Below are positions 3,445-33,073 of a DNA stretch of 36,736 nucleotides, piece by piece. The translations under genes and the position numbers were made by a program. Source of the DNA: an uncultured bacterium (GTDB lineage Bacteria; Verrucomicrobiota; Kiritimatiellia; CAIQIC01; Lenti-01); NCBI GenBank assembly GCA_902766695.1, contig CACXEY010000163.1, forward strand, positions 1 to 36,736. The letters are read 5' to 3'. Below the pieces are notes generated by a model. It had not been told where the DNA came from, searched no databases, and saw only the letters and a list, made by a program, of their open reading frames with translations. How positions within the stretch are numbered: position 1 is the stretch's first letter; each line of letters opens with the position of its first letter.

Positions 3445-3554
3445 TTGTTTCCGCAGAAGCGGATGACGTCCAATGTCTGCGCAAGTTTTCCTGACGGTGG
3501 GGGGGCATGCTCCCCCACCCTGGTCGAAGCCAGTGGAACATAATTGACCCTGAA

Positions 3555-3597
3555 AAGAGCAGTTGAGCGACACTTCGAGTGTCGCTCAACTGCTCTT
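3555..3597 (-). terminator. 43-nt perfect palindrome between convergent genes; likely terminator of the long minus-strand operon
   Basis: aagagcagttgagcgacact / agtgtcgctcaactgctctt forms a 20-bp perfect stem with a 3-nt loop. On the minus strand it is followed by TTTTCA. There is no T-run on the plus-strand side. The palindrome explains why both strands give ORFs starting MSLNCS. Confidence 0.7.
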
Positions 3598-3608
3598 GTA
3601 ATATCAAA

Positions 3609-4706
3609 TCACGGCATGGTGGCTCGTTTCCCCCACCATCGGAGCAAATTGCTTGTTGGATTGGCCAAAAACCATGGCCAACTATAACGCGAAACCCAAG
3701 TCAGAACGGCAACGGTCAGGAGGGTTTCGATTGTCCAGGCGAGCAAACCGCCGGGCATCAGATGGGTTTTCTCCATCCCATGGATTACATAGAAGAAAAA
3801 CCTATGATACACGTAAATGACGAGGGTCGCACTTCCCCACTTGGCCAACAATCGATTTGCCCGCATCACCCGCATGACAAAGAGGCACGACAGCGAACTG
3901 AGCAACAAATAGAGACATCTCAATCCCATTTTTGCGCAAGCGATACTCCAGCCAACCGGTTCACCCCACCAATCGCTGCTGGTCCTGCCATCCCAGTAAC
4001 TCCACTTGCAATGGTGAACGAAACTCAAGTTGACATCGGGCAAGACCTGCCAAAAAAGGAAAAAGAGGCCAATCAACCCCACCCAGGCAAGCCAATTGGG
4101 GATTTTGCGGATGCCCCACCGCCAATCCCACGCCGCCGTGTAATACCCCGCCAGGAAAAACGGGGAAAAGGCCAAGGCCCGTTGAACGGCAAAGGCGCCG
4201 GATACAGGGAGAAAACCACTCAGGATGCTTATTGCGACGCTCACCATGAATGCCAAAGCACATCGTCGAGGCCCGGCATTCGCCGGAGGCAACAGAAATA
4301 CTCCAATTCGCCAATAGACCAAAGCCAGCAAATACCAGTAAGTCGTTGCGGGACTTATCCAAAGTTTGATGGTCGGCGACGCCCCCTGGAAAATGGCAAA
4401 AAGAACCCAGAAAACATGAAAGCACAAAAAGGTCTCAAGCAGTCTTATGATGTTGCGGAAATAGCGCTTGCGGTCGTGGAGGTGAGTGAAACGACCTGAA
4501 ACAAACACAAACAGGGGCATGTGAAAAGCATAAATCGTATTGAAAACCGCCAGATCCAATGTCCCTGGATTATGAATAAAATGCCCATAAACGACCAAGA
4601 CAATCAAAACAAATTTCAGGGTGTCCCAATAGAGATCGCGTTGGGGTTTGCCTTCCGGGCCCGGGTGAGGGGCAGATTGAAAGTCAAGTGTTGCAACGTC
4701 TTTCAT
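3609..4706 (-). CDS. Acyltransferase family 3 (AT3) membrane O-acyltransferase
   Basis: 365 aa with ATG at 4706. AT3-type N-terminal motif WDTLKFVLIVLVVYGHF, then about 9-10 hydrophobic helices. GC is visibly lower than in flanking genes. Confidence 0.85.
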   Translation of the reverse strand: MKDVATLDFQSAPHPGPEGKPQRDLYWDTLKFVLIVLVVYGHFIHNPGTLDLAVFNTIYAFHMPLFVFVSGRFTHLHDRKRYFRNIIRLLETFLCFHVFWVLFAIFQGASPTIKLWISPATTYWYLLALVYWRIGVFLLPPANAGPRRCALAFMVSVAISILSGFLPVSGAFAVQRALAFSPFFLAGYYTAAWDWRWGIRKIPNWLAWVGLIGLFFLFWQVLPDVNLSFVHHCKWSYWDGRTSSDWWGEPVGWSIACAKMGLRCLYLLLSSLSCLFVMRVMRANRLLAKWGSATLVIYVYHRFFFYVIHGMEKTHLMPGGLLAWTIETLLTVAVLTWVSRYSWPWFLANPTSNLLRWWGKRATMP

Positions 4707-4762
4707 GTCGGGGAATCAGTTCCTGCATTGAACACACATTGGCAAAGAAGCACGCACAACCA

Positions 4763-5704
4763 CTACATCCCGTATTTCAGCCAACCGAAAAACCGCTTCG
4801 TTTGCAGTTTGAGAATGCACCAAGAAAGCAAGGCGGCGCACCCCAAGACCACGGTGAACTGGATCAAGCTGTTGTCCAGAGCCGGAAGTCTGGATGCGGC
4901 CAACAAATGCACGGCATCGGCAAAAACGAAATGCGTGACGAAAATCAGGATGCTCATCTTCCGCAATGTCACGTACGCGGGGCGAAACGTGATGGGGCAG
5001 TCCAGGAAGAGGGAAAACAGTGCGACGGTAAATGCGGCCCGGGCAAAAGGAAGCAATGCGGGAACACGCATTCCGGCATACAGCACGGGCAAGGCCATCA
5101 AACGCGCCCAGGTTGTTTCCCCCCTCCACCGGGAAAGGGGAGCCAACAACGAACCGACCTGAATCCACAACAGGAAGGGCAAAAAAGAATGTGATCCCCA
5201 CAGGACATCCATTCCCCAATGATATTGGAAAATGGCATGGGCGGCAAACGTCGCGAACAAGGCCGCGAGCGGGTGAAGGCATTTGCGCAACAGCTGGACG
5301 ACGGGAACCCCGATCATCAATGCCATGATGAAATAGGACCCCCTGAAGGTCGATCCCAAGAAAAGACATTTGGAAAAGGAAACCCAATCAAAATGCGCAT
5401 GCCACTTCTGTATGGCGATGGTGCAGGGAAGGAGAAGCACGAACCAAAAGGCATAAAAAACGGCAAGTCGCCTGACATAGTGGAACAGGGTTTGCAGGTT
5501 GACCACGGGTTTCCGGAAATAGAGATAGGACGAAACGACGAAAAAAACCGGAACGGCAAAACCCGGACAAAACGCAAAACTCAACCATCCATACTCTTTG
5601 AACAAGTGGGTATGGATGGAAACGACAAGCAAGGCCATGCAAAACTTCAGAACATCAAGCCCGGGCAATTGCTCCTGCCCGCATTTTCCGCAATCCGTCG
5701 TCAT
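4763..5704 (-). CDS. Acyltransferase family 3 (AT3) membrane O-acyltransferase
   Basis: The ORF track starts at a TTG (5761). I prefer ATG 5704, which is preceded by gagaAAGGAAAgaaa. Motif LDVLKFCMALLVVSIHT, then multiple TM helices. Lower GC than neighbours. Confidence 0.8.
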   Translation of the reverse strand: MTTDCGKCGQEQLPGLDVLKFCMALLVVSIHTHLFKEYGWLSFAFCPGFAVPVFFVVSSYLYFRKPVVNLQTLFHYVRRLAVFYAFWFVLLLPCTIAIQKWHAHFDWVSFSKCLFLGSTFRGSYFIMALMIGVPVVQLLRKCLHPLAALFATFAAHAIFQYHWGMDVLWGSHSFLPFLLWIQVGSLLAPLSRWRGETTWARLMALPVLYAGMRVPALLPFARAAFTVALFSLFLDCPITFRPAYVTLRKMSILIFVTHFVFADAVHLLAASRLPALDNSLIQFTVVLGCAALLSWCILKLQTKRFFGWLKYGM

Positions 5705-5761
5705 TTTCTTTCCTTTCTCACAGAGAGGTTTGAAACTCCACCGCCCGTTCCTGCCGCACAA

Positions 5762-6937
5762 TCACCCGTGCGCCTGGTTTTGCAAAAAGGCGACGATGTC
5801 CCGGACGACCCGTTCCGCCGCATGGCCATCTTCGACATTGCCGATTTGGGCCAGGAAACGGGCCCGTTTTTCTTGCAACGCTTCCGGGTCGAAAGAACGG
5901 ATTTCCGAGAGCAATCCGGGAAAGGTTTCGGAGATGGGATAGGGAAGGTCTTCGCAGGGCATGTAAAAACCGCGCTCGACCTTTTCATAATGGTTCCTGT
6001 CGGGGGCGAACAGGAAGCAGGGTTTCGGAGTGAGCGCGAAATCGAAGAGGGAACCCGAATAATCCGTAATCAGGACATCGGTGCAGGCCAGGTATTCCGC
6101 CATGTCGTCCGCGGCATTCCCGTCCACGACGGTTTGTCCGTCGACGGGCAAAAGCCTGTCGGCCTTGATTTGTTCCAGGACCCTGGCGTGGACCCGGAAA
6201 ACGAAGGCAAATTGCCCGCCGAATTTTTGGCCGAGGGCCGCAAGGAGCCCGGGAATGTCCATTTGGCGCACTTGTTCGATGCCGCTCCACGCCACGTCGT
6301 CGCGGAAGGTGGGGGCAAAGAGGACCAGCCGCTTTTGGGGCAGTCCCAGCTTCCGTTTCAGGGCCACCGGATCGGGGGGGGCGAACAGCAAATCGTTCCG
6401 GGGGGTGCCGTACAAGCGGATCCGGTTTTCCAGCAGGAACGCGCGATTCAGGCAATCGGCCGTGTAGCGGCATCCCGCGATGCAGTAGTCGGAACTCGTT
6501 GCGTATCCGGATGGCTTCCACCGCAGCAAATCCCCCCCGATTTTCTTCAGCGGGGTTCCATGCCACGTGGAGATGCACAATTGCCGTTTGTTGCGGGCGA
6601 GCCATTTCCTGAATCCGCCCCACGGCCCGTGGAACCCCAATTGTGCGACCCCGACATAGTTGTCGACGACCACGGCGGCCGTCTTCAAAAGCCTGAAATA
6701 CGCCCGTGACGGATACGGAACGACTTCGACATACTCCGGGGGCCGGTTCCGGCATTTTCTGGAAATGCACCAAATGATTTTGGTGTCCGGCGAGACATCG
6801 TGCAGTTTTTCCGAAATGTACTTCGGATTGTCGTTGTATTGCCCCCTGAAACTGCGGAAAAACACCGTATTGGGCAACGTGTGCCGGAATTTGGACAGAA
6901 CGCTTTCGCGGAAAACAGGAAAGCTCGACATGGTCAT
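5762..6937 (-). CDS. CDP-glycerol glycerophosphotransferase (TagB/TagF family, Glyphos_transf)
   Basis: Trimmed from ORF 5762..7237 to the ATG at 6937 (MTMSSFP). Family hallmarks: FRSFRGQYNDNPKYISEKL, WHGTPLKKIG, FAPTFRD, DVLITDYSGSLFDFALTPKPCFLFAPD. Its start overlaps the upstream gene's stop (ATGA). Confidence 0.9.
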   Translation of the reverse strand: MTMSSFPVFRESVLSKFRHTLPNTVFFRSFRGQYNDNPKYISEKLHDVSPDTKIIWCISRKCRNRPPEYVEVVPYPSRAYFRLLKTAAVVVDNYVGVAQLGFHGPWGGFRKWLARNKRQLCISTWHGTPLKKIGGDLLRWKPSGYATSSDYCIAGCRYTADCLNRAFLLENRIRLYGTPRNDLLFAPPDPVALKRKLGLPQKRLVLFAPTFRDDVAWSGIEQVRQMDIPGLLAALGQKFGGQFAFVFRVHARVLEQIKADRLLPVDGQTVVDGNAADDMAEYLACTDVLITDYSGSLFDFALTPKPCFLFAPDRNHYEKVERGFYMPCEDLPYPISETFPGLLSEIRSFDPEALQEKRARFLAQIGNVEDGHAAERVVRDIVAFLQNQAHG

Positions 6938-7500
6938 TCTCCGGGCCGGGCGGACGGGACGAAACCGATCGCGCCGGCGATGTCCGCCGCCGCCTGCGCC
7001 AGTCCCAAGGCCCGCAAGAGGGCGAAGGCGAAGGGGATTGCGGCCCCCAACCCCCTTCCCGTGATGATGTTGCCCGCAACCGACACGTTCGCACCCGACA
7101 GGATGGCCTTGCCCATTTTGCCCTCGAAGGCCGGGTGGCAGGTGGCGGGCTTGCCGTCCAGGAGCCCCAGTCCCGCCAGGACGCTCGGGGCGGCGCAGAT
7201 GGCGGCGAGGAGCCTGTTTTCGGCGAATGCGAGACACTGTTCCCGGACCAAGGCGCTTTCGGCCAAGTGCGTGGTCCCGGGGAGGCCGCCGGGGAGGACG
7301 AGGAGAGCGGCTCCGTCGAAATCCACGTCTTCCGCCAAGGCATCGGCCCGGAAACGGTCGCCATGGGAGGAAAGGATGTCCAGCCGCCCCGTGACGGACG
7401 CCGTCACGACATCAATCTTGGCCCGCCGCAAGATGTCAACGACAAGAAGCGCCTCGCATTCTTCGACGCCGTCTGCCAAAACAACAACAGTCCGTTTCAT
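6934..7500 (-). CDS. DJ-1/PfpI/ThiJ family protein
   Basis: MKRTVVVLADGVEECEAL..., LLVLPGG, nucleophile-elbow AAICAAP. Start ATG 7500 is preferred because AAGGAG sits 6 nt upstream. An alternative ATG is at 7506. Confidence 0.85.
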   Translation of the reverse strand: MKRTVVVLADGVEECEALLVVDILRRAKIDVVTASVTGRLDILSSHGDRFRADALAEDVDFDGAALLVLPGGLPGTTHLAESALVREQCLAFAENRLLAAICAAPSVLAGLGLLDGKPATCHPAFEGKMGKAILSGANVSVAGNIITGRGLGAAIPFAFALLRALGLAQAAADIAGAIGFVPSARPGE

Positions 7501-7527
7501 GCACATCTCCTTTCCCGGTCGTGAACA

Positions 7528-8463
7528 TCAAGGAAAGACCACCACGTCCTCTGCGCGCTTCCGATTGGAGCACGCCACGGAGAACTCGTCCTTGCAATGG
7601 CCCGCGGCGATTTCCAGGACGATTTTCTCGTTTTTGGGGATATGGCATGTTTCCCTGAGAAAATCATTGTACTTGCTGGCGAAATGGAGCTCTTTCTTCT
7701 TCATGCACGAGCCGATGCCCAAGGCATGGAGCGCCAAGACGAGATAGGTCGCGAAAATGGTCGCGCTGACAATCCAATCCCCGTATTCCTCCGCGGAGAA
7801 GGCATTGATTTCGCCCGTGACGACAAGATACTTGTCCGCGTGGTAGATGTTTTCGTATCCCGCCTCCTCCCGGCGTTTGCCCTCCAGGACATAGACCTTG
7901 AAGGGTTGGCGGTTGCAGGCACTGGGACACATCAGCGCCAGTTGCACGGCCTGCAACAGGGTTTCCCGGGGAATGGGCCTGTCCGCAAAATCCCGGACGC
8001 TGTGGCGCGTCGAAAAGAATTTCCGCGCCCATTCCAACCCATCGGGGACGGCCACCTCCTGCGCCGTGAGGTGCCGGGCCCCCCCCGTCGCGGTGACGGT
8101 CCCCATCCATTCGCGGATTCTGGGCGTCTTGTCGAGCAGTTTCGCGGCTCTCTCGGTTTCCTCCCGGTCTCCCGTGCTCTTCTTTGCCTCCAGATAGGCC
8201 TTCAGGACACTTGCGCCGGTTTCCAGGGCAAAGCGGTCCGGGTTCGGCATGGACAGTTCTTTCTCCAGCAAAGTCGCCAACCGCGCGATTTTGTCCCATC
8301 CCCACAACCGCCTGGGGTTCCGGATGGTCAGGCCCTTTTCGATTCGGTGGGCCGTCTGGACCAACGCGTCCCGCGCGGTCTGGCCTTTCAGGGAAGAAGA
8401 GCGGTCATGGCGAAAAGTGTCCCACAGTTGGGCGAATTTGAGGAAACGACGTGCAAGTTTCAT
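7528..8463 (-). CDS. Nitroreductase-family flavoprotein with a ~150-aa N-terminal extension
   Basis: 311 aa with ATG at 8463. The nitroreductase signature TRHSVRDFADRPIP...LMCPSACNRQPFKV lies in the C-terminal half. Confidence 0.8.
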   Translation of the reverse strand: MKLARRFLKFAQLWDTFRHDRSSSLKGQTARDALVQTAHRIEKGLTIRNPRRLWGWDKIARLATLLEKELSMPNPDRFALETGASVLKAYLEAKKSTGDREETERAAKLLDKTPRIREWMGTVTATGGARHLTAQEVAVPDGLEWARKFFSTRHSVRDFADRPIPRETLLQAVQLALMCPSACNRQPFKVYVLEGKRREEAGYENIYHADKYLVVTGEINAFSAEEYGDWIVSATIFATYLVLALHALGIGSCMKKKELHFASKYNDFLRETCHIPKNEKIVLEIAAGHCKDEFSVACSNRKRAEDVVVFP

Positions 8464-8531
8464 TGAAGACTCCGGATCAATTCAGTTGTCGCTGGGTTGG
8501 GGATGCATGGACAAAAGCACAATCGGGCATT

Positions 8532-9629
8532 TCATTGCGTGTTCCTTGTGTTTCGGCATTTCCGGAAAATGCCTTTCACCAGTCTCTTCAACTTGAACCT
8601 CCAAACGAGAAGTTTCCAGCGCAATCCGCAAGCCGTGGCGATTTGGAGGGGAATCTGGATGATTTTGGCTTTCCGGGAAAGCCGCGCGTGTTTTTGGAAG
8701 AATTCCCCGAATGGCATGGTTTCGAAATCGCGCCAGAAGGCAGCGTAACGAGGGGGTTCCGGGGTGGATTCGAACAAGTGGCGGTTGAACGCGCGGAAGT
8801 CGTCCCTTGCCAAGAAGCGCCCGCATTCTTCGAGCAGGATGCCGCCGGAGCGGGCAATGGCGTCCATGACGCCGTCTCCCCGCGGGGTGTGGGAAAGGAC
8901 CAAAGAAACGTCGCCGACTTCCCGGAAAGAAGGAAGGAACTCCGCAACACCCCAGAAATCCCCGATAGTCAAGTCGGAGGGGCGTGCGGCGGGGTCCCCC
9001 CTGAAGGGGCAGGAAAAGCACCCTCTGCAAAGCGAGCGGTTGGCGTAGAACCAGCGCATCCATGTTTCCAATTCCGGCGGCCGGTCGATCCCGCGCCTGT
9101 TGTCCAGGCGGATGAAAGGCTTTCCCGTCCGCTTGGGATCGCCGGCCTTGTGGCGGAAATGCAATTCCCGGATGTCCTCCCCGTAGCGGTTCCGGAGCAG
9201 GCCGAGAAACGCCTTCCACAAATCGCGGCGGGGAGTGCCATGGCACACCAAATCCACCGTCAGCAGCGAATCCGCCGGGACCTGTTTGCCCTCCAGCAAG
9301 CGTTTCAGGGCGGCCACCTGGCAGGGCATTCCCGAAAACAGGACGAGGACGCCCTTCGCCAGCAGGGGGGGGATGGCCTTGAAGGCGTCCGCGACATGGC
9401 TTTGGACGTATTTGCTTCCCGAAAACGGTTCCAGCCCATCCGCGAACTTGCGCAAGGCGTGCCGGACTTCGAAGCGCCCGTCGAAGACCGCCCCACACAC
9501 GACGAGACCGTCCCCGGCCTGTCGGTGCAGGCATTGCGCGATGGCGGGGAAGGCCCCGCCCGAAGAGCTGGTCGGGACGGCGAAGTTTTTCAGCGCGTAC
9601 GCTTTCACGGGCAAACCGCCGTCCCCCAT
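8532..9629 (-). CDS. Coenzyme F420 hydrogenase/dehydrogenase beta-subunit-like (FrhB_FdhB N+C) protein
   Basis: Trimmed from ORF 8532..9968 to ATG 9629 (MGDGGLPVKAYA). SSSGGAFPAIA, GMPCQVAALK, DLVCHGTP and CRGCFSCPF...DLTIGDFWG are typical of this family as found in polysaccharide loci. The start overlaps the tagD stop by 1 nt. Confidence 0.75.
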   Translation of the reverse strand: MGDGGLPVKAYALKNFAVPTSSSGGAFPAIAQCLHRQAGDGLVVCGAVFDGRFEVRHALRKFADGLEPFSGSKYVQSHVADAFKAIPPLLAKGVLVLFSGMPCQVAALKRLLEGKQVPADSLLTVDLVCHGTPRRDLWKAFLGLLRNRYGEDIRELHFRHKAGDPKRTGKPFIRLDNRRGIDRPPELETWMRWFYANRSLCRGCFSCPFRGDPAARPSDLTIGDFWGVAEFLPSFREVGDVSLVLSHTPRGDGVMDAIARSGGILLEECGRFLARDDFRAFNRHLFESTPEPPRYAAFWRDFETMPFGEFFQKHARLSRKAKIIQIPLQIATACGLRWKLLVWRFKLKRLVKGIFRKCRNTRNTQ

Positions 9630-10057
9630 CAATCTTTGTTGAGTTTGTGCAACACGTCCGACAGCAGCGTGGAGGAGATGCCGGCCGTGTGGGGGAGAAA
9701 GACGACATCGACGCCGACTTCGGAGAATTGCTTCACGATGGCGTTGTACATGTCGGAGTCCTTCCAGTCGGACCCGTGGAAGAGGGCGTTGAACTTGAGC
9801 TGTTCCCAAGCCTTGAACTTGTCCATGGAGGTCTGGGGGACGACTTCGTCGACATACTTGATGGCACCGACGATGGCAAAGCGCTCCTCGAAGGGGATGA
9901 TGGGGGTCTTTTTCTTGTAGTCCTGGACGAGGGCGTCCGTGCTGACCCCGACGATGAGGTGTTCGCACTGGGCCTTGGCGCGTTTGAGGATGTTGAGATG
10001 GCCGACATGGAACATGTCGAACACGCCGGTCGTGTAGCCTATGTTGTATTGTTTCAT
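9629..10057 (-). CDS. tagD: Glycerol-3-phosphate cytidylyltransferase (makes CDP-glycerol)
   Basis: MKQYNIGYTTGVFDMFHVGHLNILKRAK carries the HxGH motif, and HTAGISSTLL matches RTxGISTT. Size is ~142 aa. ATG 10057 has GGAGGA 8 nt upstream. Confidence 0.9.
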   Translation of the reverse strand: MKQYNIGYTTGVFDMFHVGHLNILKRAKAQCEHLIVGVSTDALVQDYKKKTPIIPFEERFAIVGAIKYVDEVVPQTSMDKFKAWEQLKFNALFHGSDWKDSDMYNAIVKQFSEVGVDVVFLPHTAGISSTLLSDVLHKLNKD

Positions 10058-10076
10058 GAGTCGGTCCTCCACAGCT

Positions 10077-11528: not shown

Positions 11529-11529
11529 G

Positions 11530-15911: not shown

Positions 15912-17017
15912 GGGGCGGCCTTCCGCCGGTAAAACTCCGCCAGGGATTCCGCCGCACCGGCGATGTCGTATCCCGCCGCAACCGCTTCGGCGGCATGGGA
16001 GGTCCGTTCGCCCGGACGGATGCCCAAAACGGCATCCACCCAGGGAGAGCCATTCCGGCCCAGCGGGAGGAACCGGACCATGTCCGTGAAGGCAACTTCG
16101 CGGGGAACGCGGGAGGAGGCCAGGCAGGGCAGGCCGGAAATCTGCGCCTCGACCAGCGAGATGCCGAAGCCTTCGAAGAGGGAAGGAAGAAGGAAGATGT
16201 CAAACGCGGAAAGGATCTTGGGAACGTCCGGCCGGGAACCCGCGAAAACGACCTTGTCGGACAACGACATGTCCGAGGCGGCCTTTTGGATGTGCTCCCA
16301 GAGTCCGCCATTGCCGACAAAACACAGTTTGAAACGGTCTGAATGCTCCAGGAGGCGGTTCAGGAGGCGGAGCATGAACACATGGTTCTTCTGGGGACGG
16401 AAACTGCCCACATGCCCGAGCAGGATTTCGTCCGGGGCGACGCGGAATTCGCCGCGGATGGCGTTGCGGGCCTGCCCGTCAAAGGAAAACCTGGGGACAT
16501 CCACGCCATTCTTGACGACCAGTTTCCTGGGGTCGGAAGCAAAGACCTTCCCGAAAAGGGCTTCGCCGGCGGCTTCGGAGCAGGCGGCGAGGGTGTCCGC
16601 GTTGCGGGCGATGTTCCAGCAGAGGAGGCGGTTGCGCAGGGCGCGGAGGGGGTAGTCCGAAAGCCTGGTGTTGTGGCTGTGGGAGATGCAGTGGCGGACG
16701 CCGTGGCGGCGGGCGGCGGGGAAGAGCGCGAAATCCACCTGGTTGAAATGGGAATGGACGATGTCGAAGGGGTGTTCGGCGAAAAAGGTCTCGAGGAAGG
16801 CGGTGAAACGCCGGTAGGATTTCAGGCCCAGCTTGGGCATGAAGAAAACCTTGGAACCGAGCGACTCGGCCAGGGAAACCATCCCCGGCTCGCTGTCCGA
16901 ATGGACCAACAAATCGATTTGCAGGCCCTCTTTGGGCATGTGCCGCAAGTAGTTCATGATGACGGCGGTGACGCCGTTGCGCTGCCGGAGGGAGGCGTAG
17001 ACGTGGAGGACTTTCAT
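15908..17017 (-). CDS. Glycosyltransferase family 4 (GT-B, Glycos_transf_1)
   Basis: Trimmed from ORF 15908..17755 to ATG 17017 (MKVLHVYASL). VGSFRPQKNH, FVGNGGL, FLLPSLFEGFGISLVEAQISGLPCLAS. Confidence 0.9.
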   Translation of the reverse strand: MKVLHVYASLRQRNGVTAVIMNYLRHMPKEGLQIDLLVHSDSEPGMVSLAESLGSKVFFMPKLGLKSYRRFTAFLETFFAEHPFDIVHSHFNQVDFALFPAARRHGVRHCISHSHNTRLSDYPLRALRNRLLCWNIARNADTLAACSEAAGEALFGKVFASDPRKLVVKNGVDVPRFSFDGQARNAIRGEFRVAPDEILLGHVGSFRPQKNHVFMLRLLNRLLEHSDRFKLCFVGNGGLWEHIQKAASDMSLSDKVVFAGSRPDVPKILSAFDIFLLPSLFEGFGISLVEAQISGLPCLASSRVPREVAFTDMVRFLPLGRNGSPWVDAVLGIRPGERTSHAAEAVAAGYDIAGAAESLAEFYRRKAAP

Positions 17018-17919
17018 CGGGTGGCTCCGGATTTGGACAGCCTGACGGCCTGCAGGCACCCGCCCAGGGGGGGCATCCCCTCGATGTAGGCGGTGAAATC
17101 GCGGTTGACGTCGGCGAACATGGCGTGGACGGCCGCCTTCCGGTCTTTTTCGGAAGGGAGTTGCATGTAGTCGCCGTAGAGGGCTTCGAGCATCTTGCGG
17201 ACATCCTTGGGGGCGAGGAGGGTGGCGTCCTCGAAGGGGATGTCCGTGACGGGGAAGCAGTGGTCCGCGGCGAAGAGTCCGCGTTCGAAGCGGAATTTGG
17301 TGACCCAGTGGAAATACATGAAGCCGTCGGCCATGCCGTCGTACTTGCCGATGAAGTGGTAGGCGAGGTTGCACAGCATGCGGCAAGGGAGGAAGCGGAG
17401 GGCGCGGACGGCCAGGGCTTGGACGGGGGTCTTGGGTTTCCAGTTTCGGTGGGAGATGGCGTAGAGAGTGGCGAACTTCGCGAGGAAATACACCCATTTT
17501 TGGACCAGGATGTTTTCCGGGACCTTGTGGAGCAGGAAGATGTCGACGAAAACGCCTTGGTGGATGTCCTTCCGGTTTTGGGTCACTTCCTCGATGAAGG
17601 TGGTCCCGTTCATGCGGACTTTTGCCCGTTCGAGGGCATCGTCCGCGACGAACCATTCCTGGAGGACGAACTTTTCCGGGGCTTCGGCGCCAAACGCGTC
17701 CCTGAACTTCCGGTATTGGTCCGGAGTCATGAAGATGTCGAGATCGTCGTCCCACGGGATGAAACCACCGTGCCGGACGGCGCCGAGGGCTGTACCGGCC
17801 GCGATGCAGTATTCAATGCCGTTCTTGCGGCACAGGGCATCGATGTATTTGGCGATTTCCAGAATCTTTTTCTGGATGTCGCGGACGGTCGGCGGGTTGT
17901 CCATGCGGAAGTCAGGCAC
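17014..17919 (-). CDS. LicD-family phosphotransferase (second copy)
   Basis: CIAAGTALGAVRHGGFIPWDDDLDIFMTPDQY. GTG 17919 has AAAGGAGG 6 nt upstream. An alternative ATG is at 17904. Confidence 0.85.
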   Translation of the reverse strand: MPDFRMDNPPTVRDIQKKILEIAKYIDALCRKNGIEYCIAAGTALGAVRHGGFIPWDDDLDIFMTPDQYRKFRDAFGAEAPEKFVLQEWFVADDALERAKVRMNGTTFIEEVTQNRKDIHQGVFVDIFLLHKVPENILVQKWVYFLAKFATLYAISHRNWKPKTPVQALAVRALRFLPCRMLCNLAYHFIGKYDGMADGFMYFHWVTKFRFERGLFAADHCFPVTDIPFEDATLLAPKDVRKMLEALYGDYMQLPSEKDRKAAVHAMFADVNRDFTAYIEGMPPLGGCLQAVRLSKSGATR

Positions 17920-18757
17920 GGGGGGGCCTCCTTTCGGATTTGCGGCGCAGGAGATGGTCGGACAAAAAGCGCATGACGGGCAGGGGGACCAGGAAGAGGG
18001 TCATTTGGCCCGCCGCGACGACGGCGAGGTCCCAGAGGGAGCAGTAGCCGCGGCGGAAATGGTCCCACTCGACCTGGACGTAGCCCCAGCAGTTGACCCA
18101 GGTCTTGCGACGCTTGTAGTTGTCCGGGCTGGAACGGTAGAGGAGAAGGGATTCCGGGAGATTGAGGGCGAGGCACCCCATGTTCAGCATGCGGGCGAAG
18201 AGGGACAGGTCCTCTTTCCGCGGGGAGGGGCCGTAGCCGCCGCAGCGGATGACCTCGCTCTTCCGGTACATGACGGTGGGATGGTTGAAGGGGCTGCGGC
18301 GGCGCATGAACTTGCGGATGCCCGCGTAGTCGGAGGGGACCACCCGGGAGGAGACGACATGGGAGGGGTCGTCGTAGAACTCGTCGATGTTCGCGCCGGC
18401 GATGGCCAGTCCGGGGTTGTCGGCGAAGAGCTTCAGGAGTTTTTCGCAGCGCCGGGGCAGCGAGATGTCGTCCGCGTCCATGCGGGCCACGAGGTCGTGG
18501 CGGCAATGTTGCAGTCCGGCGTCCAGGGCCAAGCCCAGGCTCACGTTCTCGGGCAGCTCCACGACGGTGAAAAGGCCGGGGCGCGATTGGACGAAGGAGT
18601 CGATGACGGCGGCCAACTCGTCGCCGACGGGGCCGTCGCGGACAAGGACGAACTGGTCGCAGGGGACGGTCTGGGCGAGCATGCTTTCGATGCTCTGGCG
18701 CAGGGGGCCGGGGGCGTCCCGGTGGTACATGGACATCAGAACGGAGTAGGGTTCCAT
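17912..18757 (-). CDS. Glycosyltransferase family 2 (GT-A)
   Basis: Trimmed from ORF 17912..19516 to ATG 18757 (MEPYSVLMSMYHRD). VLVRDGPV and MDADDISLP (DxD) motifs. A C-terminal hydrophobic segment is present. Confidence 0.85.
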   Translation of the reverse strand: MEPYSVLMSMYHRDAPGPLRQSIESMLAQTVPCDQFVLVRDGPVGDELAAVIDSFVQSRPGLFTVVELPENVSLGLALDAGLQHCRHDLVARMDADDISLPRRCEKLLKLFADNPGLAIAGANIDEFYDDPSHVVSSRVVPSDYAGIRKFMRRRSPFNHPTVMYRKSEVIRCGGYGPSPRKEDLSLFARMLNMGCLALNLPESLLLYRSSPDNYKRRKTWVNCWGYVQVEWDHFRRGYCSLWDLAVVAAGQMTLFLVPLPVMRFLSDHLLRRKSERRPPRA

Positions 18758-18759
18758 CG

Positions 18760-19632
18760 TCACGACTCCGTTTCCGCGATGCTTTGTTCGAGGGAAAAGA
18801 GGCGGTAATCCCGGGGGTGGTCGCCGAGGCCGGGGGCGTAGGCGAGGTTGCCGAAGGCCTTGTCCACGTAGGGGGAGAAGCGGGAGAGGAGCTTGAGGAG
18901 GGGGGAGAAGCCGGGGACGAGCGGGAGGTTTTTGCCGCGGGCGCGGGCGATGAGGCGCACGAGTTCGGAGGTGTTGGAGAGTTCGGCGTTGCAGGGCCAG
19001 AAGGTGCCGGAGGCCGCGTCGTCGACGAGGAGGCGGACGAATTCGGCGAGGTTGCCGACGTAGAGCATGGAGCGGGCGTTGGCGACCTTGGGGAAAAAGG
19101 GGAGCTTCGCGGCCATCTTTTCGAGGATGGGGAAGTTGCCCTTGGAGCCCTTGCCGTAAATCATGGGGCAACGGAGGATGGCGACCTTGAAGCTGTCGGA
19201 GGAGAGGGGGCGGAGTTTGAGTTCGGCCTGGAGCTTGCTGTCGCCGTAGAAGTTGGCGGGGGCGGGCGGGGTGTCGCGGGTGATGGTCTTGGATACGCCG
19301 ATGGGGGCGGAGTCGCCGTAGACGATGGCCGAGGACATGAAGATGAACTGTTTGACGCCCTCCGCCTTGGCCTTGGCGGCGGTTTCGGCCGGGAGCTCGG
19401 AATTGACCTTGTAGTAGAGGGCCTTGCGCTCTTCCGAGACATGGCCGACATCCGCGTGGGCGAGGCCGGCGACATGGAACACGGCGTCGTAGGGGGAGAA
19501 GTCCGCCGTCCGCCAATCGGGGGATTGCATGTCGATGGCGGAAACGGAATAGCGGTCAGGCCATTGGGCGAGGTGGGCCTGGATGGCGGACCCGACGAAG
19601 GAACCGGTGCCGGTGATCAGGAGGCGTTTCAC
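18760..19632 (-). CDS. NAD-dependent nucleotide-sugar epimerase/dehydratase (SDR, extended)
   Basis: LLITGTGSFVGS Rossmann motif and YGDSKLQAE (YxxxK). GTG start with GGGAGGA 6 nt upstream. The start overlaps the stop of the regulator gene (GTGA). Confidence 0.85.
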   Translation of the reverse strand: MKRLLITGTGSFVGSAIQAHLAQWPDRYSVSAIDMQSPDWRTADFSPYDAVFHVAGLAHADVGHVSEERKALYYKVNSELPAETAAKAKAEGVKQFIFMSSAIVYGDSAPIGVSKTITRDTPPAPANFYGDSKLQAELKLRPLSSDSFKVAILRCPMIYGKGSKGNFPILEKMAAKLPFFPKVANARSMLYVGNLAEFVRLLVDDAASGTFWPCNAELSNTSELVRLIARARGKNLPLVPGFSPLLKLLSRFSPYVDKAFGNLAYAPGLGDHPRDYRLFSLEQSIAETES

Positions 19633-21155
19633 GGGAAGTCCTCCCGTGTGTGTGGGGGGGCGGCGGAGTTCAAGTCGGCCGGATTGGAAGAAGAGGGGAC
19701 AAGGTGGTAGCCGCCGGTTTTGGGACTGCCATGGTGTTCGAGAAGTCCGGCGAGGTCGTTGACGGCCCGGGCAATGGTTTTGACATCAACCTCAAGTGCC
19801 TTGGCCAATTGACGACGGTTGATGCCTGGACATTGCCTGACGAGTTCAAGGACTTTGTCTTTTACAGGGACATTTACAGGGACATTTACAGAGACATTTA
19901 CAGGGACATTGGAAATTGTCCCATCATTTTTCGGGACACTGTTGTTTATTCCATCATTCGACGGGGAATCGACGACGAACCAATCGGAGGAGAGAGCGAG
20001 GGAGGTTTGGAACATATCTCCTTCCAGGAGAGTGGGTTCGGAACCGGCAAATGGGCGGGAATACTTGAAGAGCTTGCGGACGCCGGAACCGAGTTCGTCG
20101 GCGAAACCGATGGTTCGGAAGAAGGCGGCGATGACGGGATTTTTGGAGTCGGGTTCGAGGTTGGCGGGGGTGATGGGCCCTTGGCGGGCGGCACGACAGG
20201 GATTTTCCGTCCAGAGGCGACCGGGTTCGATGACGAAGCGGGAACGGCGGGAACTCGTGAACTCGCGGTGGATGAGAAGGTTGACGAGAAGTTCGCGGAC
20301 GACAATGTCGCGGACGCTGACGCGCCGGGCGTCGTCGTCGAGGAAGAACGGATCGGGGAGGTGCTTGGCGGCGAAGGCCATGAGGCGGTCGACGCTTTCG
20401 ACGAGGTTGGTCTGGACGAGGTCGCGGTCGTCGTAGCGGTCGAGCTGGACACGGCGGAAAAGGGCGTCCGTCCCGTAGGCGGGGCAGACGTCGAGGATGA
20501 GGTCGTCGGTGCCCAAAAGGAGGATGGCGGCGAGATTGAACCCCTTTTCGCCGGTGAGCTTGTCTTCCCCGAAAAGGCGGGAGCTGCGAAAGAGTTCTTC
20601 GTCGGACATGTCCGCCCACGGATGGTGGCCGCCCGCGAAGTTGGATGCGCGGGTGCGGATGCGGGGGAGGAGGTCGAGGCGGAGGTCGGAAGGTTTGACG
20701 TAAGGGTAAATCTTGCGCTCGGTGTAGATTTGCTGTTTGCGGATGGCGAGTACGGCGATTTCGGAGGAAGAGACGACCTTGACGTCGGCGTCGGCAAGGC
20801 GATCGTAGATGGTCCCCTTGAAGCGGTGGATGTCCGGGGTTTGGGGGACATGGAGATGGATGACGGTTTTCCCGTCGACGGACAGGATTTGGGGGTCAAG
20901 GTGGACGGCGGGGAGGAAGAGGTTGGGGTTTCCCAAGTTGTTGACGAGGTTGCGGACAAGGGAGGGGGCATGGGAGGGGGGGATGCCTTCGACGGAGCCG
21001 TTGTCGAGAACACCGAAATAGATGTCGCCGCCGAAGCGGTTGAGGAAGGCGCAGACGGTTTCGTAGGTGTCGGGGGGGATGCCGTTGCCGCAACGCTTGA
21101 ACTCGACGGCGACCGTTTCGCCGATGGAGAAGGTTTGCTGGAGGGCATGGGTCAT
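19629..21155 (-). CDS. AlbA_2 (Schlafen-type divergent AAA) + HATPase_c_4 + C-terminal winged-HTH putative transcriptional regulator ('RecG-like' family)
   Basis: Trimmed from ORF 19629..21371 to ATG 21155 (MTHALQQTF). N-terminal ETVAVEFKRC...FLNRFGGDIYFGV. Central ELLVNLLIHREF...ENP...KNPVIAAFFRTIGFADELGSGVRK. C-terminal VLELVRQCPGINRRQLAKALEVDVKTIARAV. Confidence 0.75.
   Translation of the reverse strand: MTHALQQTFSIGETVAVEFKRCGNGIPPDTYETVCAFLNRFGGDIYFGVLDNGSVEGIPPSHAPSLVRNLVNNLGNPNLFLPAVHLDPQILSVDGKTVIHLHVPQTPDIHRFKGTIYDRLADADVKVVSSSEIAVLAIRKQQIYTERKIYPYVKPSDLRLDLLPRIRTRASNFAGGHHPWADMSDEELFRSSRLFGEDKLTGEKGFNLAAILLLGTDDLILDVCPAYGTDALFRRVQLDRYDDRDLVQTNLVESVDRLMAFAAKHLPDPFFLDDDARRVSVRDIVVRELLVNLLIHREFTSSRRSRFVIEPGRLWTENPCRAARQGPITPANLEPDSKNPVIAAFFRTIGFADELGSGVRKLFKYSRPFAGSEPTLLEGDMFQTSLALSSDWFVVDSPSNDGINNSVPKNDGTISNVPVNVSVNVPVNVPVKDKVLELVRQCPGINRRQLAKALEVDVKTIARAVNDLAGLLEHHGSPKTGGYHLVPSSSNPADLNSAAPPHTREDFP
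19861..19908 (-). repeat. Four tandem 12-bp in-frame repeats (tttaca-g(g/a)gaca) encoding (NVPV/NVSV)x4
   Basis: Direct reading of 19861-19908 shows three identical units and one with a single substitution. The repeats lie in the linker just before the wHTH of the regulator. Confidence 0.9.
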
Positions 21156-21219
21156 GCGGCACTCCGACAAACGGTGGGAATGGGGGGGGCACTGAGCGAC
21201 GCCCTGTTTGCGGGGGCCT

Positions 21220-22083
21220 TCATTCGGTGTCCTCTTTTTTGCGGAGCGCGCCGGTGCCACCTTCGACGACGCCCTCTCCGCGGGCGACGGAGAAGACGGT
21301 GCCGAGGAAGCAGCGGCAGTCGAAGAAAAAGGCATGGAAGCCGCCGCGGGCGAGGTGGGCGGTGTAGTCACCGTCGAAGCGGGCCTTGACGGGGATTTCG
21401 AGTTCGTCCCGGCCGTTGATCTGGGCCCAGCCGGTGAGGCCGGGCTTGGGGGCGTTGGCGCCGTACTTGTCGCGTTCGGCGGTGAGGAGGTCCTGGTTCC
21501 AGAGGGCGGGACGGGGGCCGATGACGGACATGTTGCCGATGAAGATGTCCCAGATCTGCGGGAGTTCGTCGAGGGAATGGGCGCGGATGAAACGGCCGAT
21601 GCGGGTGATGTAGCGGCCGGGGTCGCCGAGCATGTGGGTGGGGACGTCGTGGGGGGTGTCCATCTTCATGGAACGGAACTTGTGGACGCGGAAGAAGCGT
21701 TTGTCCTTGCCTACGCGCTTCTGGGAAAAGAGGACGGGGCCGGGGTCTTCCAGAACGATGGCGAGGGAGATGGCGAGAAGGACGGGGGAGAGCAAGACAA
21801 GGCCGAAGAAAGAGAGGATGAGGTCGAGGGCGCGCTTGACGAAGCGGGAGTAGAACGTTTCGTGGAGGATGGCGGGGCCGGTCGCCACGAGATGGCCGCG
21901 GGCCCCGTCGGCGTTGGGCGGATCGTCGGCCGATTCGACGAACACGACGGACTTGCCCTCGACGGGATTGCGGTCGGAAGGGGAGTCGGCGTAAATGGTA
22001 CCGGGACGGAGGATGACGGCCAGGAGGGCGAGAATCAGGAACAGCCCGGCAAGCGTGGCGGCAATGGCGAGCAAAACGGTCAT
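21220..22083 (-). CDS. Undecaprenyl-phosphate sugar-phosphate transferase (Bac_transf, PglC/WbaP-C-like priming enzyme)
   Basis: Trimmed from ORF 21220..22371 to ATG 22083 (MTVLLAIAA). KRALDLILSFFGLVLLSPVLL...PVLFSQKRVGKDKRFFRVHKFRSM...DELPQIWDIFIGNMSVIGPRP. Confidence 0.9.
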   Translation of the reverse strand: MTVLLAIAATLAGLFLILALLAVILRPGTIYADSPSDRNPVEGKSVVFVESADDPPNADGARGHLVATGPAILHETFYSRFVKRALDLILSFFGLVLLSPVLLAISLAIVLEDPGPVLFSQKRVGKDKRFFRVHKFRSMKMDTPHDVPTHMLGDPGRYITRIGRFIRAHSLDELPQIWDIFIGNMSVIGPRPALWNQDLLTAERDKYGANAPKPGLTGWAQINGRDELEIPVKARFDGDYTAHLARGGFHAFFFDCRCFLGTVFSVARGEGVVEGGTGALRKKEDTE

Positions 22084-22667
22084 TTTGTCCCTCCACCAGC
22101 GTTGATGGGGGAGTCGGGGCGGACGCAAGTTCCGGCGGGAACCTTGGTCAACGGCGAGACGGAGGCCCGTGCGGCGACAACGGCCCCGGCATCGACGTGG
22201 GCGCAGGGGCCGACGACGGCATCGTGGTCGATGACCGCGCCGGCGGAGATGATGGCACCTATGCCAACAACGGCGTTGGTATGGACGATGGCGCCGGGAA
22301 GCACGAGCGCCCCGGGACCAATTTGGGCGGAAGGGCTGACGAAAGCGTTGGGAGATACCAAAGGGGGGCAAGGAACCGCAAGGGTTTCGATGCGGGCAAA
22401 AAGGTCCTTCCGCATGGAAAGGTTTCCCACGCTGACGGTCATGGCGTCATACCGGGCGGCGACGGATGGAAGCCCGGAAAGGGTGCAAACGGCCCCGGGT
22501 GCGGCATCATCGGCGAAGTCCACGCGGGAATAGCCGCAGGCACGGGCCAGTTCGGCCACGACGCAACCATGGCCGCCCGCCCCAAGAATCAAGAGCGAAT
22601 GCGGATACCCAAACGTCCCCATCGTGCCGGCGGCGGGATATGATTGGATAGTGGCGGGAATGGACAT
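22080..22667 (-). CDS. NeuD/PglD-family sugar N/O-acetyltransferase (hexapeptide repeat)
   Basis: LLILGAGGHGCVVAELA Rossmann-like N-domain followed by left-handed beta-helix repeats (IGPGALVLPGAIVHTNAVVGIGAIISAGAVIDHDAVVG). An alternative ATG is at 22622. It is the first gene of the operon. Confidence 0.8.
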   Translation of the reverse strand: MSIPATIQSYPAAGTMGTFGYPHSLLILGAGGHGCVVAELARACGYSRVDFADDAAPGAVCTLSGLPSVAARYDAMTVSVGNLSMRKDLFARIETLAVPCPPLVSPNAFVSPSAQIGPGALVLPGAIVHTNAVVGIGAIISAGAVIDHDAVVGPCAHVDAGAVVAARASVSPLTKVPAGTCVRPDSPINAGGGTK

Positions 22668-24671: not shown

Positions 24672-24727
24672 CGACGGAAGCCGGACTTGAAAACCCGGCC
24701 GTTTTGTGGTCGAATCCATCGTGCGTC

Positions 24728-24801: not shown

Positions 24802-24835
24802 CGCCTTGTTTGACGGACAATCTGGAGGAACGGAG

Positions 24836-33072: not shown

Positions 33073-33073
33073 G

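Follow-up and report, generated by a model that had tools for sequence, protein, structure and literature searches.

A predicted surface-glycan locus of a Kiritimatiellia-like bacterium joins a conserved non-TagD cytidylyltransferase with flavoenzymes and a sulfotransferase-like protein family

The window analyzed here is the whole 36,736-nucleotide (nt) stretch of contig CACXEY010000163.1, and its main subject is a run of 19 consecutive minus-strand genes (G1-G19), descending from position 22667 to 3609, whose products are predicted to assemble and decorate a surface glycan. Family memberships, gene order, conservation and co-occurrence are given below as observed. As the window is high in guanine plus cytosine (GC), frames were chosen by third-position GC and checked by inspection of start codons, ribosome-binding sites and gene junctions. 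Fifteen product lengths (281, 301, 369, 395, 269, 454, 350, 483, 142, 365, 311, 188, 389, 313 and 365 amino acids, aa) match those of an independent gene caller, whose calls are stored for a 47-kb public metagenome contig containing the same sequence. Overlapping or 1-nt-spaced genes account for 11 of the 18 junctions (-4, -4, -8, -4, -4, -23, -4, -7, +1, -1 and -4): six are of the ATGA or GTGA type, three are the overlaps of -8, -23 and -7, and the others read TGAnATG and TGATG. The rest comprise one junction of +2 and six of 19-68 nt. The run ends at a hairpin with a 20-bp stem. An earlier note on this DNA, made from the sequence alone, had described the same 19 genes, eleven tight junctions and terminal hairpin, and frame analysis, the gene caller and folding all agree with it. 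The features are as follows.

22668-22961, no strand: presumed promoter region, a 294-nt divergent intergenic interval upstream of G1 (gene model)
22080-22667, minus strand: G1, NeuD/PglD-type sugar N-acetyltransferase, 195 aa (start possibly 22622; PglD_N 41.7 bits, plus Hexapep)
21220-22083, minus strand: G2, small polyprenyl-phosphate glycosyl-1-phosphate (priming) transferase, 287 aa (Bac_transf 169.5 bits; ATGA overlap with G1)
19629-21155, minus strand: G3, protein with AlbA_2/Schlafen, HATPase_c_4 and winged helix-turn-helix domains, 508 aa (Pfam; no NCBIfam match)
18760-19632, minus strand: G4, SDR-family NAD-dependent epimerase/reductase, 290 aa (Epimerase 71.3 bits, RmlD_sub_bind 52.9 bits)
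17912-18757, minus strand: G5, GT2 glycosyltransferase, 281 aa (Glycos_transf_2 73.5 bits)
17014-17919, minus strand: G6, LicD-family phosphotransferase, 301 aa (LicD, PF04991, 122.2 bits)
15908-17017, minus strand: G7, GT4 glycosyltransferase, 369 aa (Glycos_transf_1 78 bits, Glyco_transf_4 52 bits)
14724-15911, minus strand: G8, GT4 glycosyltransferase, 395 aa (Glycos_transf_1 99.7 bits)
13937-14746, minus strand: G9, LicD-family phosphotransferase, 269 aa (LicD 148.9 bits; WDDDID present; 83% identical in locus L094)
12576-13940, minus strand: G10, polytopic membrane protein, 454 aa (about 11 hydrophobic segments)
11530-12582, minus strand: G11, probable sulfotransferase-fold protein of an uncharacterized family, 350 aa (Sulfotransfer_3 28.2 bits, C-terminal third only)
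10077-11528, minus strand: G12, Wzx (MOP-family) flippase, 483 aa (Polysacc_synt_3 287.4 bits)
9629-10057, minus strand: G13, small HxGH cytidylyltransferase, 142 aa (CTP_transf_like 68.3 bits)
8532-9629, minus strand: G14, FrhB/FdhB-C-domain flavoprotein-like reductase, 365 aa, no ferredoxin domain (FrhB_FdhB_C 61.5 bits)
7528-8463, minus strand: G15, nitroreductase-fold flavin mononucleotide (FMN) enzyme, 311 aa, with a 130-aa helical N-terminal domain without match (Nitroreductase 71.3 bits)
6934-7506, minus strand: G16, DJ-1 family glyoxalase III-type protein, 188-190 aa (DJ-1_PfpI 114.7 bits)
5762-6937, minus strand: G17, TagB/TarF-sized CDP-polyol phosphotransferase of the Glyphos_transf (TagF-like) family, 389-391 aa (PF04464 219.1 bits)
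4763-5704, minus strand: G18, probable AT3-type membrane O-acyltransferase, 313 aa (7 hydrophobic segments; Acyl_transf_3 24.6 bits)
3609-4706, minus strand: G19, AT3-type membrane O-acyltransferase, 365 aa (Acyl_transf_3 68.7 bits; 88% identical in L094)
3555-3597, no strand: hairpin with a perfect 20-bp stem and a 3-nt loop, likely a bidirectional terminator between convergent genes (sequence and folding)

Pfam and NCBIfam searches recover every family that the earlier note had named, with caveats for four of them: the Wzy-like protein has no Pfam match, the second AT3 protein is sub-threshold, the sulfotransferase match is marginal and partial, and the enzyme called TagD falls below its equivalog cut-off. 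This last case removes the name. G13 scores 83.3 bits against g3p_cytidyltrns (TIGR01518), where the cut-off is 165.4, and nearly the same, 79.5 bits, against rfaE_dom_II. Its best single-domain scores in the PDB are 68 bits for the cytidylyltransferase domain of Fom1, 63 for TagD and 52 for the N-terminal domain of human ECT (89 over both ECT domains); the identities are 38% to TagD, 33% to TarD, 36% to the Fom1 domain and 40% to human ECT. G13 keeps HxGH (as HVGH) and GSDW, and its KKK aligns with K44-Q-K46 of TagD, whereas it reads HTAGISST where TagD has RTEGISTT, with His in place of Arg113. In the validated glycerol-phosphate cytidylyltransferases, which come from Gram-positive as well as Gram-negative bacteria, identity to TagD is 60-70% and RTxGISTT, with its essential Arg113, is kept (PMC8262930). 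The LPHTxGISST form is common to the orthologues of G13, nearly all of which carry the His, while the TagD-type cytidylyltransferases of L134, L154, L167 and L170 keep RT. These orthologues occur in loci resembling Lachnospiraceae, Bacteroidales, Ruminococcus and Abditibacteriota and are 59-94% identical, as against about 30% for the accompanying LicD proteins and 38-50% for the FrhB and nitroreductase proteins. By these comparisons the G13-type enzymes are a separate, highly conserved orthologue group, distinct from TagD.

Since G13 is not a TagD orthologue, cytidine diphosphate (CDP)-glycerol, which the earlier note had favored as the donor, is plausible and not established. Many loci carry a G13-type enzyme without any reductase (L092, L093, L099, L105-L109, L113 and L120), and the substrate is therefore probably a common metabolite; given the nearby TagF-like enzyme, glycerol phosphate would be the best single guess, although not an established one. 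Two other roles were set aside. A RibL-type flavin adenine dinucleotide (FAD) synthetase was dropped, the RibF-related and FAD-synthetase matches being near noise; bacteria have RibF, a further point against it. CDP-glycerate synthesis of the CpgD type involves a different fold and offers an analogy only.

Flavoenzymes adjoin this type of cytidylyltransferase in a recurrent pattern. A G15-type gene lies next to a G13-type cytidylyltransferase in L089, L090, L091, L094, L095, L100, L102, L110, L117 and L118, and follows it directly in L090, L091, L094, L095, L100, L102, L110 and L118. Homologues of G14, with 38-41% identity, occur in a LicD-cytidylyltransferase-FrhB trio. The otherwise homologous loci L083 and L085 have this trio, whereas L089 has LicD-cytidylyltransferase-nitroreductase, with the nitroreductase in the exact place of FrhB. 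Two unrelated flavoenzymes are thus interchangeable beside one type of cytidylyltransferase, from which we argue that the head-group pathway includes a redox step. Neither the two flavoenzyme genes nor the DJ-1 gene appear to be bystanders, a nitroreductase or FrhB-like gene adjoining a G13-type cytidylyltransferase in many unrelated loci. Our literature search found no description of a LicD-cytidylyltransferase-nitroreductase module, of the G13-type clade or of its pairing with flavoenzymes.

The individual flavoenzymes offer few clues to a substrate. G14 shows no FrhB_FdhB_N or Fer4 domain, no NCBIfam match and no PDB sequence match, and is predicted to be a relative of the FrhB/FdhB family and not an F420 hydrogenase subunit; it is absent from the close relatives L091 and L094. 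The wider FrhB-like family in glycan loci adjoins PS_pyruv_trans or is fused to it, and these reductases appear to be mechanistically tied to pyruvyl transfer. Two fusions were noted in passing: PS_pyruv_trans, ferredoxin and FrhB_FdhB_C in one 782-aa protein (L086, 13871-16219), and ferredoxin, FrhB_FdhB_C and a hexapeptide acetyltransferase in one of 597 aa (L083, 14520-16313). The G15 family has 237 members, conserved over the full length. The G15 model has a predicted local distance difference test score (pLDDT) of 91, and solved nitroreductases (165-250 aa) cover only its C-terminal part; Foldseek returns only generic FMN nitroreductases, IYD and cyclodipeptide oxidase, and a PDB sequence search likewise returns generic nitroreductases. 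G16 scores 139.6 bits against TIGR01383, above the equivalog cut-off of 131.25, and has the nucleophile-elbow motif AICAAP; counterparts are present in L084, L094 and L095.

The second unusual component is G11, which has neither an NCBIfam nor a PDB sequence match. Its AlphaFold model (pLDDT 83) retrieves sulfotransferases in Foldseek, with template-modeling (TM) scores of 0.34-0.48, E values of at least 3.7e-4 and 10-13% identity among the best matches; the list holds one non-sulfotransferase, a weak kinase match near the bottom. The family is well delimited and comprises 1,877 clusters at 50% identity, nearly all of 330-360 aa, annotated as 'hypothetical' or weakly as 'sulfotransferase', and members are 52-77% identical across phyla. 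Four motifs are invariant: GxCGFGSTGSS, DQPF, VVDRDPRDNYVF and NPxPKSIFDP. Sulfotransferases that use 3'-phosphoadenosine-5'-phosphosulfate (PAPS) have a basic residue, Lys or Arg, in the loop that binds the 5'-phosphosulfate. On inspection of 30 aligned members, the N-terminal P-loop GFGSTGSS of the G11 family is invariant and contains neither. RDPRD is invariant as well, with an invariant Phe where the Ser of the 3'-phosphate-binding motif would be expected, a placement by sequence register only.

The company kept by the family points away from sulfation. Among 80 loci fetched with the family profile, 34 are well flanked (at least 4 kb on both sides); a cytidylyltransferase is present in 23 of these 34, LicD or TagF in 4. 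Three more loci end just before the position at which syntenic loci carry the cytidylyltransferase. Five types of activation pathway accompany the family. The first has the G13-type cytidylyltransferase, and the second a TagD-type cytidylyltransferase fused to GFO_IDH_MocA, together with an aminotransferase (L154, L167, L170). In the third, CTP_transf_like is fused to PEP_mutase (L132, L163), and L163 adds phosphonopyruvate decarboxylase and an aminotransferase, completing an aminoethylphosphonate pathway. Choline kinase, LicC-like and IspD-like genes make up the fourth (L104, L119). The fifth has an IspD-like cytidylyltransferase followed by an SDR gene, a Bcs1/TarIJ-like CDP-polyol pair (L127); L133 has an IspD-like gene in the same position. 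One 687-aa protein (L172, 5558-7621), beside AT3 and TagF-like genes, fuses a G11-like domain to LicD.

Some details of these loci stand apart. The fusions of the second type lie at 13260-14651 in both L167 and L170 and at 13312-14655 in L154, L167 and L170 also having a class-V aminotransferase and a pyruvyl transferase adjacent; such fusions may lead to an amino-polyol phosphate of the serinol type as the head group. The G11-like and LicD fusion of L172 adjoins an 896-aa fusion of a GT4 glycosyltransferase to a radical SAM/SPASM domain (2871-5561). A role for G11 as a head-group kinase was rejected, as the phosphonate cassettes of L132 and L163 need no kinase.

From these neighborhoods, the G11 family probably acts on cytidine-activated head groups, most likely as a further phospho-head-group transferase. 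Because the family is tied to cytidylyl activation in 23 of the 34 loci, sulfation by this gene, which the earlier note had thought possible, becomes doubtful, and its count of up to three phosphotransfer steps may rise to four, with G11 added to the two LicD proteins and G17. Our wider proposal is tentative, and we hold it to be somewhat short of probable: the G11 family would be an unrecognized class of glycan-modifying phospho(no)transferases with a sulfotransferase-like fold, using CDP- or cytidine monophosphate (CMP)-activated donors (glycerol phosphate, polyol phosphates, phosphocholine-type groups, 2-aminoethylphosphonate) beside or in place of LicD and TagF, with G13-type enzymes and nitroreductase or FrhB partners supplying a redox-tailored head group. 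The literature that we searched mentions no sulfotransferase-like phosphonate transferase and no link between this family and cytidylyl activation.

The remaining candidate phosphotransferases are G6, G9 and G17. Both LicD proteins score above the Pfam threshold. G6 aligns with the catalytic domain of FKRP and keeps the acidic DxD-type motif common to the two, as WDDDLD. Donors of the LicD family include CDP-choline and CDP-ribitol, among others. The Glyphos_transf match of G17 exceeds the gathering threshold and spans profile positions 11-366 of 367. Against residues 347-712 of Staphylococcus epidermidis TagF (3l7i) G17 scores 132 bits, its TWHGTPLK and RVH aligning with QTWHGTPLK and RMH, which hold the catalytic His444 and His584 of that enzyme. 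No named-enzyme cut-off is reached (TarF 134.8 against 550 bits, TarL 55.8 against 1000, TarB 26.4 against 500), and by its predicted size of 390 aa G17 resembles the single-addition enzymes TagB or TarF and not a polymerase. It is 79% identical in L094 and absent from L084 and L091.

Comparison with relatives separates a persistent set of genes from an exchangeable one. At its 5' end L091 keeps the acetyltransferase (64% to G1), the priming transferase (92%) and the SDR gene (91%); at its 3' end it has G11-Wzx-cytidylyltransferase-nitroreductase, followed by the same convergent AT3 gene and giant Flg_new protein. Its central glycosyltransferases differ from those of the window, and it has no LicD, FrhB, DJ-1 or TagF. 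L090 shares the G11-Wzx-cytidylyltransferase-nitroreductase order, again without LicD or TagF. L084 has G11-Wzx-cytidylyltransferase-FrhB-nitroreductase-DJ-1-AT3-AT3 and lacks TagF, while L094 has LicD-Wzy-G11(91%)-Wzx-cytidylyltransferase(92%)-nitroreductase-DJ-1-TagF-AT3-AT3 and lacks FrhB. Wzx follows the same association, G12 being co-inherited with G11 and G13 at 50-82% identity in L084, L090, L091, L093, L094 and L095. Judging from these gene orders, the genes of the decoration module are inherited together. The hypervariability between conserved flanks foreseen in the earlier note is what the comparison with L091 and L094 shows: the 5' genes and the 3' flank are conserved, and the set of genes enclosed by them is another one.

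This comparison also identifies an intruder. In L091 the homologues of G2 and G4 are directly adjacent, the AlbA_2 gene between them is missing, and homology to the window resumes exactly at the start codon of G4. G3 is therefore taken as an insertion and not as a pathway regulator by descent; it has a 64-nt gap upstream, and its stop overlaps the start of G4 (GTGA). PADLOC, applied to G3 and two flanking open reading frames (ORFs), reports no defense system, the matches of 14-18 bits being at noise level. G3 is thus a later insertion outside the glycan pathway, and the 'regulator' listed earlier as an operon member loses that standing, being absent from the closest syntenic relative.

The assembly genes make up a familiar framework. 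G1 reaches 112 bits against NeuD_NnaD, under the cut-off of 160.8; G2 matches EPS_sugtrans at 197.9 bits over its C-terminal domain only; and G4 reaches no NCBIfam equivalog. G10 has no Pfam match even at E <= 10. A homologue in L092, with 24% identity, matches Wzy_C over the whole profile (E = 5.6e-4), so that the link to Wzy is transitive only. Homologues of G10 lie upstream of those of G11 in L084, L090, L092, L093, L094 and L095, and downstream, or not detected, in some other loci. On this basis G10 is probably a remote Wzy-type polymerase. The Acyl_transf_3 score of G18 is below the 31-bit gathering threshold, yet the whole profile is covered. No Wzz, Wzc or Wza was found among the 19 genes and the 10 flanking ORFs scanned, and these may be encoded elsewhere in the genome. 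Of the Wzx/Wzy glycan locus claimed in the earlier note, the single direction, priming transferase, Wzx, LicD- and TagF-type enzymes and acyltransferases are solid, and the Wzy link is remote.

We lean, with modest confidence, towards reading the run as a single locus of the Wzx/Wzy type, whose product would be a repeat-unit surface glycan with phospho-decoration and O-acylation. The steps would be as follows. G2 would start the unit on polyprenyl phosphate, the first sugar, which G1 and G4 would tailor, probably being an amino sugar in N-acetylated form. The repeat unit would be extended by G5, G7 and G8, flipped by G12 (Wzx), polymerized by G10 (remote Wzy) and O-acylated by G18 and G19. The distinctive part of the locus would be the decoration module G11-G12-G13-(G14)-G15-G16-G17. 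G13 would make the CDP-activated head group, presumed most likely to be glycerol phosphate or a close derivative, and up to four enzymes (the two LicD proteins, TagF-like G17 and G11) would pass it to the glycan. In the reaction envisaged for G11, which is chemically plausible, an acceptor hydroxyl would attack the beta-phosphorus of CDP-X and CMP would leave, just as 3'-phosphoadenosine 5'-phosphate (PAP) leaves when the sulfur of PAPS is attacked. G15 and G14, with the DJ-1 protein G16, would be optional accessories, presumed to oxidize or reduce the head group or its precursor.

Several points weigh against this reading. Co-occurrence is not activity, and the enzyme roles given here are predictions. 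Four transferases served by one donor-making enzyme would be unusually many. The structural relatives of G11 are PAPS sulfotransferases, and the RDPRD typical of the 3'-phosphate-binding site is kept. Cultured Kiritimatiellae make sulfated exopolymers (PMC7356697). A cytidylyltransferase is missing from the surrounding 10 kb in 8-11 of the 34 G11-like loci with adequate flanks, and the most distant members of the family (27-30% identity; L158, L164, L165) have glycosyltransferase neighbors only. The fusion of G11 to LicD suggests complementary and not interchangeable roles. The loci were mostly found through G11, FrhB or nitroreductase queries, so the sample is not centered on the cytidylyltransferase. 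Finally, we infer, rather than observe, that one transcript covers all 19 genes, and no RNA run containing the operon sequence was found.

The simplest competing account is that of the earlier note as written: G13 would be a divergent glycerol-3-phosphate cytidylyltransferase, the LicD and TagF-like enzymes would add glycerol phosphate, G11 would be a PAPS-dependent sulfotransferase, and the FrhB-like, nitroreductase and DJ-1 genes would be unrelated tailoring enzymes or passengers. The catalytic motifs of the Glyphos_transf enzyme are intact, and it stands three genes from the cytidylyltransferase in both the window and L094; G13 keeps HxGH, GSDW and equivalents of Lys44 and Lys46, and has TagD among its best PDB matches; glycerol 3-phosphate fits the common metabolite implied by the reductase-free G13-type loci; the fold matches of G11 are sulfotransferases; and Kiritimatiellae make sulfated polymers. 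However, G13 does not reach the TagD cut-off and resembles rfaE domain II, the Fom1 cytidylyltransferase domain and ECT to about the same degree, and the validated enzymes that are 60-70% identical to TagD have Arg113 (PMC8262930) where the G13 type has His. In addition, a nitroreductase or FrhB-like gene adjoins the cytidylyltransferase in more than 10 loci of several lineages, and G11-like genes lie inside phosphonate, CDP-polyol and phosphocholine activation cassettes without another transferase. We regard this account as somewhat unlikely. A division of the run into two or more transcription units, for example with G3 under its own promoter and separate units from the 56-68-nt gaps before G15, G18 and G19, seems to us a little less likely still. 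Six junctions do span 19-68 nt, the inserted G3 has its 64-nt gap upstream, and G18 and G19, with a much lower GC content (51-53%), look recently acquired; but the 19 genes all point the same way, translational coupling links eleven of the junctions, and the sole strong hairpin is at the end of the run. That hairpin, with a folding energy of -39.2 kcal/mol (z = -8.9 relative to 200 shuffled sequences), separates the operon from a convergent plus-strand AT3 gene (2203-3444); a consensus terminator scan did not list it, its tail having four U only. Inside the run, neither terminator-like sites (30, with 25.9 expected from shuffles) nor promoter-like sites (2, with 4.4 expected) are in excess. 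A sigma-70 consensus match is absent from 22668-22961, in a scan that does not cover the promoter types of this phylum.

A more remote account, which we consider improbable, supposes a three-carbon-acid head group. G13 would activate phosphoenolpyruvate (PEP) or phosphoglycerate, the phospho-enolpyruvyl group would be placed on a sugar and reduced to phospho-lactyl by the nitroreductase-fold or FrhB-like enzymes, and DJ-1 would handle a 2-oxoaldehyde or anhydride by-product. The analogy is with FbiB, whose C-terminal nitroreductase-fold domain reduces dehydro-F420-0 and is among the top NCBIfam matches of G15, at a weak 25 bits; this similarity, though, is to a generic N-terminal nitroreductase motif, and Foldseek finds generic nitroreductases only. 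The Klebsiella capsules K22 and K37 contain lactyl (1-carboxyethyl) ethers. A pyruvyl transferase is accompanied by a nitroreductase in K22 and K37 and by an 'F420 hydrogenase' in K66, all three types being listed as not pyruvylated (PMC4616057); the reductases may convert an enolpyruvyl or pyruvyl substituent to the lactyl ether. The logic of FbiD, FbiA and FbiB is documented (PMC6450877), CpgD shows that bacteria do make CDP-glycerate as a donor (PMC12275187), and enzymes of PF01467 accept carboxylated substrates such as phosphonoformate (PMC6697681). The FrhB-like genes of glycan loci are tied or fused to pyruvyl transferases that use PEP, and the L093 locus has a 2-hydroxyacid dehydrogenase. 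On the other side, CpgD and FbiD belong to another fold, and the cytidylyltransferase often occurs without any reductase. We know of no phospho-lactyl glycan, and to our knowledge the TagF-like family works only with CDP-glycerol and CDP-ribitol. Two further chemistries were set aside: a phosphonate head group in the window was rejected, no PEP mutase match being found in the 19 genes and 10 flanking ORFs scanned, and a pathway to a phosphoramidate resembling O-methyl phosphoramidate (MeOPN) was dropped, there being no glutamine kinase or adenosine 5'-phosphosulfate (APS)-kinase-like gene.

The locus, with its decoration module, has counterparts among known systems. Bentley and co-workers (2006) reportedly described Wzy-dependent pneumococcal capsule loci with Gct (TagD) and Glyphos_transf or LicD-family phosphotransferases. 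Those loci are alike in combining Wzx/Wzy, a priming transferase, glycosyltransferases, a small cytidylyltransferase, side-chain phosphotransferases of the TagF-like and LicD-like kinds, and acetyltransferases, with all the genes side by side on one strand. They differ from the present one, which has a diderm host of the Planctomycetes-Verrucomicrobia-Chlamydiae (PVC) group, a non-TagD cytidylyltransferase, extra flavoenzymes, DJ-1 and G11, and no CpsABCD-type regulators, Wzz, Wzc or Wza among the flanking ORFs scanned here. Escherichia coli O antigens O28ab, O37, O100, O130, O29, O33, O118 and O151 contain glycerol phosphate or ribitol phosphate (PMC7685785). Because these O antigens already carry such groups, a diderm that makes an anionic polymer with phospho-decoration is not in itself the unusual case that the earlier note had supposed. 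The O antigens too are repeat-unit surface glycans of a diderm; their phylum and gene set are different.

TagF-like enzymes are likewise known from Gram-negative pathogens, in which the group 2 capsule polymerases Cps3D and Cps7D work with the cytidylyltransferases Cps3B and Cps7B (PMC5974469, PMC8262930). They share with G17 a Glyphos_transf domain using a CDP-polyol in a diderm, and G17 matches Cps3D (8qoy) at 60 bits. By contrast, Cps3D and Cps7D are large multidomain polymerases of ABC-transporter-dependent loci, whereas G17 is a 390-aa single-domain enzyme of a Wzx/Wzy locus, and cytidylyltransferases of the Cps3B/Cps7B type are about 70% identical to TagD, G13 only 38%. In the Pnt and Lic pathways, nucleotidyl activation by LicC, PntC or a Fom1-type cytidylyltransferase domain is followed by LicD-type transfer (PMC6697681). 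As in the proposed module, a small phospho(no) head group is first activated as a cytidylyl derivative and then passed to a surface glycan, and G11-like genes lie inside such cassettes (L132, L163, L104). They differ in that the window has neither PEP mutase nor choline kinase, and a sulfotransferase-fold transferase candidate is not mentioned in PMC6697681. No LicD was found in the contigs recovered for L132 and L163, which are 10.7-13.9 kb long. PAPS sulfotransferases (the CurM domain 4gbm, 3rnl, TPST and the Stf family) are the structural relatives of the G11 model, and G11 has an N-terminal P-loop and an RDPRD motif; it departs from them in its TM scores of 0.34-0.48, its loop without Lys or Arg, and its genomic partners, which are cytidylyltransferases and not PAPS-synthesis genes. 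Overall, the locus is an unremarkable example, in a new phylum, of a familiar class, and it is the decoration module that is worth experiment.

The flanks place the locus in its host. Upstream of the operon, at a distance of 3.6 kb, lies a prolyl-tRNA synthetase (ProRS) gene that shows 83-87% identity to its counterparts in metagenome-assembled genomes of Kiritimatiellia and 'Verrucomicrobia', and the operon sequence recurs in bovine gut and rumen metagenomes. For these reasons the guess of a PVC host made in the earlier note proves right: the host is, by its sequence, a Kiritimatiellia-like bacterium from the cattle gut. Synteny centered on ProRS informs taxonomy only, since none of the 80 loci taken from GTDB genomes has a flanking gene in common with the window. 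The GC content of the locus is 51-67%, against 66-73% in the flanks, and is lowest in the two terminal AT3 genes (G18 53%, G19 51%). Downstream of the operon, the plus-strand AT3 acyltransferase at 2203-3444 (413 aa, 73.6 bits), the third of its kind, converges on the operon across the hairpin in a layout also seen in L091, and may belong functionally to the glycan locus. Beyond it the window starts inside a giant surface protein (40-1944, plus strand; 3,623 aa on the full contig, L001 17686-21098) with Listeria-Bacteroides (Flg_new) repeats and faint Glug and Peptidase_M26_N matches, a relative of which flanks the L091 glycan locus. Upstream, a tRNA-Arg(CCT) gene (24728-24802, plus strand) lies 2 kb from the operon, between a 569-aa ORF without Pfam match (22962-24671) and a second, ordinary nitroreductase (24806-25525), and might serve as a landmark for integration of the variable locus. 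Plus-strand GC skew is strongly positive (up to +0.34) over 14000-34000, across the minus-strand operon and beyond, and the cumulative skew climbs steadily with no turning point inside the window. A 1,420-aa ORF at 30403-34665 on the minus strand is probably spurious; the plus strand there encodes a peptide deformylase, an extracytoplasmic function (ECF)-type sigma factor and other ORFs, with third-position GC of 0.85-0.93.

As the locus indicates, Kiritimatiellia-like bacteria of the rumen make acylated surface glycans with phospho-decoration. They exchange the underlying genes with Bacteroidales, Lachnospiraceae and Ruminococcus, the cytidylyltransferase being 59-76% identical across these groups. 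In glycan loci that activate aminoethylphosphonate, polyol phosphates or similar groups with cytidine triphosphate (CTP), the transferase is often unknown or assumed to be LicD-like (PMC6697681). If the proposal for G11 is true, its family would provide a testable transferase candidate for such cassettes, and the chemistry of the fold would extend from sulfuryl to phosphoryl-ester transfer. The close association between a cytidylyltransferase that is not TagD and flavoenzymes of the nitroreductase-fold or FrhB-like kind, for its part, points to an undescribed head-group pathway.

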